Source: a virus
Taxonomy: Duplodnaviria > Caudoviricetes
DNA: 24,982 nucleotides
IMG/VR virus record: IMGVR_UViG_3300022841_000477
Coordinates: 1-24,982 of that record
Direction: 5' to 3' (one strand)
Shown here: piece after piece, positions 4,029 through 24,982 of the stretch
Position numbering within the stretch: position 1 is the stretch's first letter
Layout of the letters: each line of letters starts with the position of its first letter
Translations under genes and position numbers: made by a program
The notes under the pieces: generated by a model
The model's database searches: none
What the model was told of the DNA's origin: nothing
What the model saw: only the letters and a program-made list of their open reading frames with translations

Positions 4029-4328
4029 ATGAATACTATAATAAAAAAACTACACTGGCAACAAGTTATGATAGCTGCCAGCATAATGATGTCTGGAGGA
4101 CTAGCATTGTCTCTATGGGCAATTAGTCATCAAAATAACTTACTTGCAATTATCGGTATTACGCTAATAGGAGTGATAGCAATTAGTTGGTGGTTCTGGG
4201 TTATGTATGTGGTTAAGACTTTAATAAATTTCTATACCACTACTGGTAGTGGACTAGTTGAAATAAAATACAGTCTAAGAGACATTAGAAATCTGATGCA
4301 AGACTACGAATCTGCACGACAGAGATAA
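4029..4328 (+). CDS. Two-TM membrane protein
   Basis: Two hydrophobic stretches (VMIAASIMMSGGLALSLWAI; LLAIIGITLIGVIAISWWFWVMYVV); ATG 5 nt after TAAATA. Confidence 0.7.
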   Translation: MNTIIKKLHWQQVMIAASIMMSGGLALSLWAISHQNNLLAIIGITLIGVIAISWWFWVMYVVKTLINFYTTTGSGLVEIKYSLRDIRNLMQDYESARQR

Positions 4329-4420
4329 ATACTGTATCAAAGGCAAACAATAGGCGACTTACAATTTAGGCATATGGCTCGGAGCGAGCACTTGACTTAA
4401 CAAGAGGATACCCAAACAAC

Positions 4421-4660
4421 ATGTCATCGCAAACAACACAATTAGAAAGATCAAGCCTTGAAGCGCATGTAGACTTATGCGCACTACGTTATGAGCAATT
4501 AGACGAACGTCTAATCACTCTAGAAGGCAAAGTAGATATCATGCACAAAGATATTGTAGACGGACAAAAGAGTTTGACCAAAGTAATTATTGGTACAGCC
4601 GGAACAGTAGTAGCAGGGATATTATCAGTAGCAATTGCAGTCTTAATGAAGATGGCGTAA
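4421..4660 (+). CDS. Coiled-coil protein with a C-terminal TM helix (XhlA/holin-like architecture)
   Basis: Heptad-like LDERLITLEGKVD followed by VIIGTAGTVVAGILSVAIAVLM; SD GAGGA. Confidence 0.6.
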   Translation: MSSQTTQLERSSLEAHVDLCALRYEQLDERLITLEGKVDIMHKDIVDGQKSLTKVIIGTAGTVVAGILSVAIAVLMKMA

Positions 4661-9841: not shown

Positions 9842-11317
9842 ATGACAACGATTACGGTAATAAAAAGAAGTGGAGCGAAAGAGCCATTGATGATCGAGAA
9901 GTGGCAGGCACAGATCGCAAAAGTATGTAAAGGTATTGCAGATGTCAGTCAGTCAATGATTGAGATTAAAGCGCAATTGCACTTTTACGATAACATAACA
10001 ACAGAAGAAATTGACGGTATCACATTACGTGCTATTGTTGACCTAATCGATGTAGAACAAAATCCCGATGTAGGACATACTAACTATCAATATGTAGCAG
10101 GTAAACAGCGGCTATCAATGTTGAGGAAGAATGTATATGAGTCATATGAAGTTCCCCACCTTTACGAAATTGTAAAGAAGAATGTTGCTGTTGGCCTGTA
10201 CACTAGTGAATTATTAGACTGGTACAGTCAAGACGAGTGGAACAAGATGGATGACATGCTGGATCATGAAAAAGATGAACAGTATGGATATGCAGCCATT
10301 GAACAGTTAATTGAAAAGTACTTGGTACGTAATCGTGCAACAAAGGAAATTTACGAAACTCCACAGATTAGATACATGGTTGCATCTGCTACGATTTTTC
10401 ACAAAGAAGAACCAAGCGGCGCACGTATGCGTTACATCAAAGAATATTACAATGCAGCTAGTGATGGACTCTTTACTCTTGCAACTCCGGTCTTGGCCGG
10501 TTTGGGCACTCCTACTAAGCAATTTAGTAGCTGTGTTCTTATTCGTAGCGATGATGACTTGGATAGTATTTTTGCATCTGGTGAGATGATGGCAAAGTAT
10601 GCTAGCAAACGTGCTGGCATTGGTTTAGAAATTGGACGTCTACGTTCATTAGGTGCCCCGATTCGTGGCGGGGAAATTCAACACACAGGCATGATACCGT
10701 TCTTAAAGAAATGGTTTGGTGATTTGCGTTCATGTTCACAAGGTGGAATTCGTAATGCTAGTGCTACAGTGTTTTATCCTATTTGGCATCATCAGTTTGA
10801 TGATCTTATTGTGCTTAAAAATAATCAAGGCACTGAAGAAACTCGAGTCCGACATATGGATTACGGAGTGGTTCTTTCTGCCTTCTTCTGGAGACGGTTC
10901 AAGAACAAAGAACAAATAACATTCTTTGACCCTAATGAAGTACCTGACTTGTATGAAGCGTTCTACAGAGATACCTCTTTGTTTGAAGAACTGTATGTCA
11001 AGTACGAAAAGCAGAAAGGTCTACGTAAAAAGACTATGAGTGCTGAAGAAGTGTTCAAGAGTGGTATTTTGAAGGAACGCACGGACACAGGTCGAATATA
11101 TCTTGTATTCATTGATAATGTAATGAACCAAGGGCCTTTCAATCCTGAATATCATGCGATTTATCAAAGTAACTTGTGTTGTGAGATTCTATTACCAACC
11201 AAATCATTCAAACGCCTGGATCCAACACGAAAGACAGTTCGTGTTAAAAAAGATAAGGTAGATGAGTTTATGAAAAACAAGTCTAATGATATAGTTAAGA
11301 TCAGAAAGATATCATAG
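9842..11317 (+). CDS. nrdA: Class Ia ribonucleotide reductase alpha subunit, N-terminal piece (NrdA-a)
   Basis: ATP cone (VIKRSG), TPVLAG...FSSCVL, SQGGIRNAS and SNLCCEI; ends in a 31-aa basic tail that is not RNR sequence. Confidence 0.95.
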   Translation: MTTITVIKRSGAKEPLMIEKWQAQIAKVCKGIADVSQSMIEIKAQLHFYDNITTEEIDGITLRAIVDLIDVEQNPDVGHTNYQYVAGKQRLSMLRKNVYESYEVPHLYEIVKKNVAVGLYTSELLDWYSQDEWNKMDDMLDHEKDEQYGYAAIEQLIEKYLVRNRATKEIYETPQIRYMVASATIFHKEEPSGARMRYIKEYYNAASDGLFTLATPVLAGLGTPTKQFSSCVLIRSDDDLDSIFASGEMMAKYASKRAGIGLEIGRLRSLGAPIRGGEIQHTGMIPFLKKWFGDLRSCSQGGIRNASATVFYPIWHHQFDDLIVLKNNQGTEETRVRHMDYGVVLSAFFWRRFKNKEQITFFDPNEVPDLYEAFYRDTSLFEELYVKYEKQKGLRKKTMSAEEVFKSGILKERTDTGRIYLVFIDNVMNQGPFNPEYHAIYQSNLCCEILLPTKSFKRLDPTRKTVRVKKDKVDEFMKNKSNDIVKIRKIS

Positions 11318-11326
11318 TTAAACGTG

Positions 11327-11370
11327 CCTAAAGTACATAGTAATGATAAATAACTACAATGTACTTTAGG
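11327..11370 (+). promoter_or_regulatory. RBS-sequestering hairpin with a late promoter in its loop
   Basis: CCTAAAGTACAT (11327-11338) / ATGTACTTTAGG (11359-11370) form 12 perfect bp; ATAAATA at 11346-11352; SD TAGGA lies in the 3' arm. Confidence 0.85.
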
Positions 11371-11378
11371 AATAATAA

Positions 11379-12110
11379 ATGACTTTTACACCCACGTGGC
11401 TAATGATTAAGAAACATAAAATTACTGGATTGAAATATCTTTGTAAAACTACCGGAAAAGACCCTATAAAATATCTAGGGTCTGGTACTTATTGGAAAAG
11501 GCATCTTAAAGAACACGGCACCGAAGTTGAAACAGTATGGTGTCAATTATTTGAGAACAAAGACCAGATATATCAATTTGCTATTAATTTTAGCAAAGAA
11601 AATAATATTGTAAATGCTAGGAACACAGACGGTGAAAGAATTTGGGCAAACCTAATTGAAGAAAACGGCATTGATGGTGGCGGCAATAAAAATCTTCCAA
11701 TGTCTGCTGAACAAAAAGCAAAACTAACAGATACTTGGGAAATTACTACTCCAACCGGCGAACATTTAATTTTAGAAAATATGTTAGAATTTTGTCGAAA
11801 TAATGGATTAAATGCTAGTGCAATGAGTGCTGTAGCAAGAGGCAATAGAGGACACTATAAAGGATATAAGTGTCGTAAACTTACTAACAACAGAAATGTT
11901 ATATATGAGTTTAAGGAAAAACAATATCTAACAGATAGTGAAAAAAGTAAAATAAACAGTGATGGCGTAAAAAAAGCAAAAAGAGCCAATGCTGACCCAA
12001 AAATAAAATATAATGATGTTACATATAACACATTAGTTGAGGCAATAGATGCAACTGGAATAAGTAGACATCTTTTGATAAAACATGGCAAACTTTTAAG
12101 AAATAACTAG
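11379..12110 (+). mobile_element. Free-standing GIY-YIG/Seg-like homing endonuclease gene inserted in nrdA
   Basis: PTWLMIKKHKITGLKYLCKT...YLGSG.YWKRH resembles the Seg-type N-terminal domain; C-terminal NUMOD-like DNA-binding modules; AT-rich. Confidence 0.8.
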
Positions 12111-12118
12111 GATGAACA

Positions 12119-13135
12119 ATGAACGCATTATATGAAGAGATAGAATGTCTACCGGAAGAACTAGATGACGAATACGAGTATTATGAAATTGATGAAGTCG
12201 AGGGCAGAGTGTCCCTGTGTACCTTGGGATCTATGAACTGGGGAGCGTTCCGGAACCCAGAGGATATGCGTAGAGCTTGTAGAATTCTACATCGTAGCCT
12301 AAATAACATTCTTGACTATCAAGACTTTTTGTCGATACAGAGTAAACTCAGTAACGATGAGATTCGCCCATTGGGCATTGGCATTACTAACCTAGCATAC
12401 TGGCATGCCAAGCGCAGCCTTAAGTACGGTGAGAAAGATGCACTGGCTGAGGTTAAGAGCTGGCAAGAGCACCAGTCATTCTACTTAACAGAAATGTCAG
12501 TTGAACTAGCTAAAGAGCGTGGTAAGTGTTTAGACAGCGACCATACTCGTTACGGTCAAGGAATATTTCCTTGGGAACTACGTGCTAAGGGCGTTAACGA
12601 GTTAACCGACTTTACTCCTGAATTAGATTGGGAAACGTTACGCAAAGAAATGTTAATCCACGGTGTGCGCAATGCTACCAATGGTGCAGTTGCTCCTGTT
12701 GAGTCTAGTTCAGTGGTTATCGACAGTACCAATGGTATTGAAATGCCAATGAGTTTAATTACCACTAAAGAATCAAAAGCAGGATCGTTTACGCAAGTTG
12801 CTCCCGAATATAACAAGTTGAAGAACAAGTATCAGCTGATGTGGGAGCAGAAAGACTGCGTTGGTTACATTAAGACAGCGGCTGTTATTGCGGCCTACAC
12901 TGACCAAAGTATTAGTACTAACACATTCTACAATCCAGCACACTTTCCAAATCGTAAAGTGCCAACTACATTAATTGCCAAGAACTTGATGCAGGCGCAT
13001 ATATGGGGCCTTAAGACCTTCTACTACAGTTTAATTAACAAAGCAGGCAGCAAGATGGCTGCAGACGATGCGCCTACTATGCTAGAACCAATTAACTTTG
13101 ATGACGAGGAAGATTGTTTATCTTGTAAGTTGTAA
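12119..13135 (+). CDS. nrdA: Class Ia ribonucleotide reductase alpha subunit, C-terminal piece (NrdA-b)
   Basis: Own SD (AGGA) and ATG; acidic leader, then GRVSLCTLGS, RPLGIG, APVESSS, DQSIS, LKTFYY and terminal CLSCKL. Confidence 0.95.
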   Translation: MNALYEEIECLPEELDDEYEYYEIDEVEGRVSLCTLGSMNWGAFRNPEDMRRACRILHRSLNNILDYQDFLSIQSKLSNDEIRPLGIGITNLAYWHAKRSLKYGEKDALAEVKSWQEHQSFYLTEMSVELAKERGKCLDSDHTRYGQGIFPWELRAKGVNELTDFTPELDWETLRKEMLIHGVRNATNGAVAPVESSSVVIDSTNGIEMPMSLITTKESKAGSFTQVAPEYNKLKNKYQLMWEQKDCVGYIKTAAVIAAYTDQSISTNTFYNPAHFPNRKVPTTLIAKNLMQAHIWGLKTFYYSLINKAGSKMAADDAPTMLEPINFDDEEDCLSCKL

Positions 13136-23730: not shown

Positions 23731-23934
23731 ATGGCAACAGGTAAAGTAAAATGGTTTAATGAAACCAAGGGTTTTGGATTTATTACTCCAGACAACGGCG
23801 GTGAGGATGTATTTGCTCACTACACAGCTATTCAAACTTCAGGATTTAAAGTCCTGCAAGAGAACCAAGCTGTAACATATGACACAGTGCAAGGTGCCAA
23901 AGGCGCTCAAGCTGCAAATATTGTACCAGCGTAA
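23731..23934 (+). CDS. cspA: Cold-shock protein
   Basis: [15 protein letters not shown] (RNP1) and DVFAHY (RNP2). Confidence 0.97.
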
Positions 23935-23944
23935 GCTAGTACAG

Positions 23945-24266
23945 AAAGAATTGTTGTAATTCCTTCGACAAGGATGTGTTCAAGACGCCGGTTCGAATCC
24001 GGCCAGGTCCACCATAAGCAGTTTAAAACTCGTTACCAGACGATGAAACGTAACCAACTGGAAATGTAGAGATACATAGGAATACGCAAACTGCTTTTGA
24101 TGGGCCTGCTCTGGTAATCGATTGGGCAAATAGTTAGAGACGGCAACACGGTAGGCGATGACCGTTAATCAAGCAAATCAAAGTAAATGCAACAGCAATT
24201 ACAAATGAGGCCTACGCTCTAGCAGCGTAATCTCCGAGGCAACTATGCCTTGTCATCCAAACTAGT
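23945..24266 (+). ncRNA. ssrA: Circularly permuted (two-piece) tmRNA
   Basis: T-arm GCCGG-TTCGAAT-CCGGC (23987-24003) and CAGGTCC-ACCA (24004-24014) come before the 5' strand GGGCCTG (24102-24108), which pairs 7/7 including G3:U70. Tag frame 24189-24230 reads ATAITNEAYALAA*. Outer ends are approximate. Confidence 0.93.
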
Positions 24267-24268
24267 TT

Positions 24269-24293
24269 AAAAGGCTACTTCGGTAGCCTTTTT
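24269..24293 (+). terminator. Intrinsic terminator after the tmRNA
   Basis: AAAAGGCTAC-TTCG-GTAGCCTTTT plus T. Confidence 0.9.
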
Positions 24294-24318
24294 ATTTGCC
24301 TAAAATTACCAAAACCGA

Positions 24319-24347
24319 GTGACTAATTTTATACAACACTGTATAAT
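24319..24347 (+). promoter_or_regulatory. Sigma70-type promoter in front of the non-coding locus
   Basis: GTGACT (24319-24324), 17 nt, TATAAT (24342-24347) with TG extension. Confidence 0.65.
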
Positions 24348-24353
24348 AATTAC

Positions 24354-24825
24354 TTAAGGCAATAAAGGCGCACCTAGGCAAACTAGCGTGACATAAGGTT
24401 GGCGGGCCGGTTAATAATTCCGCTGGATAAGGTTCTGATGTGTGACCCAATGTCCAATTCTTTTCTTCACTCGAAAGACTTTTAAGCACTACCTCAAGCC
24501 TTGACTTGAGATGCCTATAAAACGCCAGTCCCTTGATTGTTCACGTTTGCTTAATCGGAAAAGGTTGCAGGAATTTATTAGCGCATCCATGACTGAAATT
24601 GGCACCGAGTCAGTCTTAAAAATCGTAGTAGGTGGGGTAAGGTACAGAGCCCAGAGATGTTAATTCCAAAATACCTACAGCCACCAGTGTGATTGAGCAA
24701 CTCAACAAACATGAATACGGCACTCATTATGTGGGTGCCGTATGACTTCACAATCTAACAAAACTTAAAACAATTAAAAGAAGAAAAATAATGCGAGCGA
24801 CAGCGTAGCATTGGTCTTTAGACCT
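24354..24825 (+). ncRNA. Candidate large structured non-coding RNA of unknown class
   Basis: Own promoter, no + strand ORF in the track, and many nested helices (see findings). Ends are approximate. Confidence 0.6.
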
Positions 24826-24884
24826 TTACTGATTTATACTGTAAACATCTTAAAATATATTAAGTCAAAATCTATTAGAACTAC

Positions 24885-24913
24885 TTGACTATTAGGATTA
24901 ATCAAGGTATAAT
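24885..24913 (+). promoter_or_regulatory. Sigma70-type promoter for the next gene
   Basis: TTGACT (24885-24890), 17 nt, TATAAT (24908-24913). Confidence 0.75.
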
Positions 24914-24970
24914 ATAACATCAAGAACAGGTAGTTCTTAGAATTTATTTCACACACAAAGGAAAAACAAT

Positions 24971-24982
24971 ATGTCAAATACT
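24971..24982 (+). CDS. Start of a CDS that runs off the window (MSNT...)
   Basis: SD AAAGGA followed by ATG at 24971. Confidence 0.5.

Follow-up and report, generated by a model that had tools for sequence, protein, structure and literature searches.

The locus examined here raises the question of why a 79-aa gene should have three copies of the word AGGC where its leader is predicted to begin, and a large candidate non-coding RNA three more at its 5' end, and of what might read them. The window, by which we mean the whole 24,982-nucleotide stretch of DNA that was analyzed, is a phage contig of 25 kb on which virion, exonuclease, and endolysin genes were identified. Table 1 lists the features that bear on the question.

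Table 1. Positions of the features discussed in the text
Feature	Position	Strand	Remarks
ATAAATA box, predicted phage late-type promoter of the 79-aa gene	4325..4331	+	Present in 49/51 non-redundant homologue leaders
Three AGGC copies, leader of the 79-aa gene	4340..4372 (copies 4341, 4352, 4368)	+	G-poor spacers; predicted 5' end of leader
Small hairpin-forming element GCTCGGAGCGAGC	4377..4391	+	Between repeats and ribosome-binding site; folds as hairpin
79-aa conserved ORF	4421..4660	+	Likely coiled coil, then one C-terminal hydrophobic segment; XhlA-like at best; putative holin only
Cold-shock protein gene	23731..23934	+	phrog_729, E 2.8e-23
Permuted betaproteobacterial-type tmRNA with 3' hairpin	23903..24294	+	RF01850, 121.8 bits; RF04321, 114.7 bits
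Sigma70-like promoter consensus match GTGACT-17-TATAAT, 5' of the large RNA	24319..24347	+	
Three AGGC copies, optional 5' tail of the large RNA	24356..24380 (copies 24357, 24366, 24376)	+	
Structured core of the ~400-nt candidate non-coding RNA	24395..24762	+	Conserved; compensatory changes; no Rfam family

The initial annotation had placed the copies just after TAAATA (positions 4326 to 4331) and TATAAT (24342 to 24347); all of its coordinates in both clusters proved exact, and both sets do start 9 nt past their box. The promoter setting that it took the clusters to share holds insofar as a promoter-like box precedes each of them; the boxes themselves, however, are unlike, one being ATAAATA and the other sigma70-like. 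We take ATAAATA to resemble T4 TATAAATA, while TATAAT or TATACT occupies the equivalent position in many homologues of the large RNA. The proposed common order of word variants amounts to a loose trend at most: in both classes, the central copy tolerates the most variation. Counting window-identical loci, a G follows the second copy in 4 of 29 leaders of the 79-aa gene and 2 of 11 RNA tails that have three copies, but never the first or third. When the window was scanned against random controls, both clusters stood well above background for triplets of [AT]AGGC[AG] (WAGGCR). With both strands scanned, no other stretch of 35 nt in the window holds three such words; 300 order-3 Markov simulations gave a mean of 0.023 and never two, for a motif that was picked after the two clusters had been seen. 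Plain AGGC in three copies is less rare, with a simulated mean of 0.59 and a third window cluster in coding sequence at 2517 to 2559.

Relatives of the 79-aa protein were encoded in 596 of the 600 stretches scanned, and 80 loci were kept. Removal of two with short upstream sequence and collapse at 85% identity left 51 leaders, one of them window-identical; all leader counts below likewise refer to non-redundant sets (<85% identity), and kinship among loci inflates every one of them. The cluster is conserved, with at least two AGGC copies within 100 nt in 49/51 leaders. The copies are oriented, 129 lying on the sense strand versus 3 on the antisense strand, and positioned, 100 lying downstream versus 9 upstream of ATAAATA (within 40 nt), with the first copy 6 to 11 nt past this box in 37 of 49 leaders. 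They are spaced 7 to 25 nt apart by spacers containing 3% G. As a control, two copies were found in 2 of 187 upstream stretches of neighboring genes at the same loci, an imperfect comparison in that these stretches were 60 nt long and often coding. No AGGC was found at two distant 79-aa homologues (contigs G006 and G007) or at locus L553. The last copy lies 30 to 75 nt before the start codon in 51/51 leaders and does not overlap the ribosome-binding site; thus, simple occlusion of that site would be impossible here without spreading. The 3' half of the leader has recurring modules of its own, namely, the CTCGGAGCGA hairpin in 7/51 and RAGTTTACT in 25/51.

The large RNA was traced with a 20-nt core motif, which was found at 36 viral, 72 metagenome, and 1 genome-collection loci; a second search pattern gave 29 loci, all on contigs that the core motif had found. 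Compensatory changes occur at 31 of 54 predicted pairs in 26 aligned sequences; the window RNA, when folded by itself, does not stand out (z −1.4). Rfam contained no match to the RNA, BLAST found none in cultured phages, and the RNA core profile, run with nhmmer, found nothing at E < 1 among the four ncRNAs annotated in PA5oct, as given in the available part of PMC7318152. Only one of four sequencing runs, X4, which is probably DNA, covers the RNA region well. In the 3' part of the RNA (24700 to 24762, alignment A2), a two-copy motif, CTCAACAAA ... CTAACAAA, is visible whose copies seem by eye to change together across homologues, and TGGCACC co-varies by eye with GGGTGCC, a likely pseudoknot. 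Many homologues have an inverted repeat, CCAAAA...TTTTGG, before the −10 box, possibly a DNA site for a phage activator; the window has the first arm only (24306 to 24335).

Conservation of the word at the RNA 5' end is partial. Of the 110 sequences, 69 allowed anchoring with 130 nt of upstream sequence, and these reduced to 40 non-redundant homologues (one window-identical). In the 65 nt before the core, at least two AGGC copies were present in 16/40 homologues (at least three in 15) and one in 2, whereas 22/40 had none, four of the AGGC-less tails being ACAC-rich instead. Because it lies before the core and is present in some homologues and absent from others, nearly all or none, the AGGC tail is an optional module outside the RNA core. 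Where present, it resembles the leader clusters in orientation (61 sense to 6 antisense at RNA 5' ends) and position: 38 copies lie downstream and 3 upstream of the −10 box, and the first is 7 to 11 nt past it in 12 of 14 tails. The cis-element common to the 79-aa leader and the large RNA is thus conserved and real.

A scan of eight related contigs revealed the AGGC word again at the same few genes, so that it now marks five kinds of locus: the leaders of the 79-aa gene, of a gp32-like single-stranded-DNA-binding protein (SSB) gene, of a 115-aa basic protein gene, and of a SegE GIY-YIG gene, and the 5' ends of the large RNAs. The SSB leader is the most constant carrier, with at least two copies in 59/60 (80 loci fetched, 70 with full leader, 60 non-redundant), which removes the specific link to a membrane or lysis-type gene that the initial annotation had drawn. 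The SSB gene (phrog_1192, E 6e-66; PF08804, E 1.6e-5) is absent from the window, and its leaders are known here from relatives; the SSB of one relative is closest to those of the cultured jumbo phages Paride/PA5oct, Atu_ph07, and GAP32, at <60% identity. The repeated word in these leaders is AGGCA[AT], with a sense-to-antisense ratio of 163:2, and the last copy occupies the ribosome-binding position, 11 to 15 nt from the ATG, in 28/60. Inverted repeats can also be seen by eye in SSB leaders. A check of covariation within contigs was limited by the fragmentary state of the contigs, of which 0/5 and 1/35 yielded the SSB.

At the 115-aa gene (53 loci fetched), whose product matches no known family, at least two copies were present in 23/32 leaders, and 5/32 were without the word; the ratio of sense to antisense copies was 53:1. 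The last copy is at the ribosome-binding position, 9 to 13 nt from the start, in 25 of 27 word-bearing leaders, a position that usually reads GAAAGGCAAC (for example, L420:13328-13675). At the SegE gene (PF19835; 80 loci fetched), 23/57 leaders had at least two copies and 18/57 had none, again with a strong sense bias (66:2). Moreover, the large RNA or its 3' signature lies downstream of SegE in 57 of 63 unique stretches (L231 to L310, just past the stop codon). No fewer than three divergent subtypes are represented among these SegE-linked RNAs, seven of which start in the manner of the window RNA. The subtypes are probably homologous, judging from a shared 3' end seen by eye and weak profile matches for the window-like subtype (best E 3e-8). 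Contigs G001, G002, and G010 were each seen to have a pair of large-RNA paralogues, the first following SegE and the other, of window type, located elsewhere.

Extended forms of the word include AGGCAAC, AGGCACAC, and ACAC-type tails, with GCACAA in Atu_ph07. Two contigs (G009 and G019) have the word on SSB and 79-aa leaders alike. In G010, the RNA tail (×4) and the SSB leader, which has a single AGGC copy, have the 11-mer CTTAGGCACAC in common. After the SegE gene of the same contig (L477), C-rich tandem repeats of type ATACCACCACGGC stand between gene and RNA, replacing AGGC.

Intergenic pairs of AGGC are not enriched overall (45, versus 58 for GCAG and 45 for GGCA), and the marked set is therefore small. 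To rank clusters within genomes, we used a matrix trained on 79-aa leaders only; the training set held close relatives of some 79-aa leaders and no RNA tails. In the window, the 79-aa leader ranked 1st and the RNA tail 2nd of 24 clusters. The RNA tail ranked 1st of 67, 72, and 152 clusters in G001, G004, and G010, respectively, and the top cluster in G010 led to a further divergent copy of the large RNA. The SSB leader came 1st of 224 in G008 and 2nd of 211 in G002, and the 79-aa leader came 1st in G009. The SegE leader was the one known member among the top five clusters in G006, and no known member was among the top five in G007.

Across loci, AGGC spacings range from 7 to 37 nt and the spacers contain 3 to 11% G. 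Furthermore, GGC is less paired in folds of the leaders than in shuffled context (0.43 to 0.52 versus 0.25 to 0.33). The preference for the sense strand, the variable distances between copies, the scarcity of G in the spacers, and the weaker pairing seen when leaders are folded point to sites that act at the RNA level; counting against this, the GGC of the tails was just 0.28 unpaired when whole RNAs were folded singly. The initial annotation had proposed repeated sites for one RNA-binding protein. The sites stand, being conserved, on the sense strand, and downstream of promoter-like boxes, whereas the binder is something that we infer. That one RNA-binding protein reads both the 79-aa leader and the large RNA is nonetheless probable.

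The leading candidate for this protein is the SSB itself, and we put the probability that the AGGC repeats are RNA sites for a shared protein, that protein putatively being the SSB, at roughly 45%. Several points argue for it: the SSB leader is the most constant carrier of the word; T4 gp32 represses its own mRNA via a pseudoknot and UUAAA repeats with cooperative spreading, as described in the available part of PMC535899; such spreading would account for sites far from a start codon; and some cultured relatives have other repeats in their SSB leaders. In Atu_ph07 the SSB-leader repeat differs, and the only matches to its pattern in 490 kb are at this leader and ahead of the topoisomerase II gene; in GAP32 the repeat is confined to the SSB leader. 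No clear repeat was found in the SSB leaders of Paride and Phosso. The Atu_ph07 repeat reads GCACAATTAGCACAA in the SSB leader (L554, 2608 to 2622; L312) and upstream of the annotated topoisomerase II start, which makes this gene a possible second target in a cultured phage.

Under the SSB reading, SSB present beyond what single-stranded DNA takes up would nucleate at the AGGC repeats and spread cooperatively from them across the ribosome-binding site, and the spread protein would repress its own gene and the 115-aa, SegE, and 79-aa genes. The RNA tail would let SSB load on the large RNA, as a buffer or to control RNA folding or lifetime. Both repression and titration by the binder are inferred. 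Among described systems, this arrangement would be most like the T4/RB69 gene 32 operator, with another word, several targets, and a presumptive binder. The likeness lies in short repeats within a largely unstructured, A-rich leader of a gp32-family SSB gene, running up to the ribosome-binding site (in relatives). In contrast, the word here is AGGC(A) and that of T4 is UUAAA/UAAA; the T4 operator is described, in what is available of the source, for gene 32 alone, whereas the AGGC word marks three further genes and the large RNAs. By this analogy, a gene-32-like operator word may have come to serve a small regulon, in which the RNA tail would act as a decoy or loading site. Since T4 gp32 binds single-stranded DNA sequence-independently (according to the same available part of PMC535899), a preference for 4 to 5 GC-rich nucleotides would be new. 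The fullest version, which we regard as rather unlikely in its entirety, would make the replication SSB of this large clade of uncultured aquatic jumbo phages a sequence-selective RNA regulator whose regulon comprises the SSB, a small basic protein, the SegE nuclease, and a late membrane protein; the detachable AGGC tail of the large RNA would sponge or load SSB and thereby couple single-stranded DNA levels in replication to late gene expression.

All of the conservation and strand evidence fits equally well a word that serves as RNA site for some other protein, either a dedicated translational repressor of the phage from some unknown family, such as the basic 115-aa protein, or a host RNA-binding protein, which the large RNA would then titrate. 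The 115-aa protein has in its favor the word at the ribosome-binding position of its own leader (25/27), as in an autoregulated repressor; its family is large (1319 representatives), and its structure model is confident (pLDDT 82) and shows a small alpha/beta protein. This model found no PDB match by Foldseek at E ≤ 0.001 and a best VIA Z of 3.5, its sole matches among viral structures were uncharacterized homologues, the sequence gave only weak short matches to solved structures, and BLAST found no match in cultured phages. However, the 115-aa gene was found in only 4/8 contigs, not in the word-bearing G001, G004, G009, and G010 (contigs 41 to 81% complete), and 5/32 of its own leaders are without the word. 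None of the RegA, CsrA, Hfq, and KH families was represented among 114 conserved G006 proteins of ≤330 aa (of 422 called); RegA (PF01818) was not found in five contigs either, in a search without a positive-control match. The cold-shock protein CspA was ruled out as a general binder, being present in only 1/8 related contigs. We consider another binder unlikely, though it is the alternative that fares best.

The close placement of the first copy behind the promoter box in both classes, together with the fact that the word heads non-coding RNAs too and never overlaps the 79-aa ribosome-binding site, might instead indicate a 5'-end signal for transcription or RNA turnover (initial transcription or antitermination, nuclease cleavage or protection) rather than a translational operator. 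Such a signal is hard to reconcile with the SSB and 115-aa copies, which mostly lie 20 to 66 nt from a promoter box and track the start codon, or with the type-A RNAs, in which a pair of copies is internal (mean of 2.6 AGGC versus 1 GCCT per 450 nt), and we judge it improbable.

Base pairing has a lower standing still. Here, the RNA would be a regulator of antisense type, whose conserved GAUGCYU would pair with AGGCAU(C) either in the leaders or within the RNA tail itself. GA[TC]GC is indeed present in 40/40 RNA cores and unpaired in the consensus fold, and several 79-aa leaders read AGGCATCC. On the other hand, exact GAUGCCU occurs in 8/16 tail-bearing versus 18/24 tail-less RNAs and so does not co-vary with the tail, the predicted pairing of the tail to GAUGCCU is 0.11, and internal GCCU-AAGGUA pairing had no support in nested folding (0.005). 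The SSB and 115-aa leaders prefer AGGCAAC, which would leave a duplex of about 5 pairs. This role is very unlikely. Least probable of all are DNA-level transcription-factor sites just past promoters, where direct repeats can be operators, and a chance match of two unrelated repeats, for which the shortness of the word and the genome-wide commonness of AGGC pairs would speak: a non-palindromic 4- to 5-bp core, unfixed spacing, the strict restriction to the sense strand, and the way in which copies line up with the ribosome-binding site argue against the former, and recurrence at the same loci with top ranks in independent contigs excludes chance for the set.

The CsrB/CsrA-style system envisaged in the initial annotation is a poor fit. 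CsrA and CsrB work through GGA motifs in hairpin loops on targets and decoy, whereas the word here is AGGC, carried in 3 to 4 copies on an optional tail, with the last 79-aa copy well away from the start codon. As in CsrA/RsmA with CsrB/RsmZ, mRNA leaders share a short word with a non-coding RNA that has it in several copies, and the word overlaps the ribosome-binding site in part of the SSB leaders and in 115-aa leaders; unlike there, the copies lie in G-poor spacers and the RNA has a covarying core of its own. No CsrA-family protein was among the 114 G006 proteins scanned. The permuted tmRNA is of betaproteobacterial type, a hint at the host group.

One described RNA touches the family. The Polynucleobacter-1 motif (RF01718; PMC2864571) matches the 5' part of one SegE-linked RNA subtype (6 of 16 loci scanned), and the 3' end of that subtype is common with the window-type RNA. 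In contrast, the RF01718 covariance model gave no match in window positions 24290 to 24982 up to E 10, and the motif covers ~140 of ~450 nt; the kinship between the RNA subtypes was judged by visual alignment and shared position, with no statistic. A literature search found no paper on the AGGC word or the large RNA. New here, as far as the available part of PMC2864571 goes (an earlier SegE remark there is possible), are the extent of the locus set, the all-or-none tail, and the linkage of SegE to the RNA. If the SSB reading is true, gp32-type autoregulation, known in T4 for a single mRNA, would in this widespread clade of uncultured phages have broadened into an RNA regulon of several genes, partnered by a non-coding RNA. 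The AGGC word also offers a direct handle, as a 30-nt bait with which to find the binder and as a first testable interaction for an orphan family of ~400-nt structured RNAs. It likewise connects these RNAs with the SegE GIY-YIG gene and probably with Polynucleobacter-1, itself an orphan motif. The pairing of the SegE nuclease gene with the large RNA merits separate study.

The holin label once attached to the 79-aa gene is unsupported, the matches behind it being weak. Like XhlA-type proteins and phrog_1193 "hemolysin," which a homologue matches at E 6e-4, the product is small and combines a likely coiled coil with a single hydrophobic segment at its C-terminal end. However, PF10779 (XhlA) matches only 3/52 family members (best E 0.006), no endolysin gene is adjacent in the window, and the complete relative G006 encodes a separate 3-TM holin. 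The window protein had no PHROG match at E 0.01 and no BLAST match in cultured phages.

Elsewhere in the window, the cold-shock gene runs straight into the permuted two-piece tmRNA (23731 to 24294). Positions 24885 to 24982 hold a strong sigma70-like match (11/12) and an ACAC-rich leader before an ORF that continues in the identical contigs L085 and L097 and that we take, by motif, to encode a peroxiredoxin-like protein. Finally, a ribonucleotide-reductase-like large-subunit frame, recognized by inspection at 9842 to 13135, is split into ORFs of 491 and 338 aa, and the 243-aa ORF between the two halves looks like a homing endonuclease.
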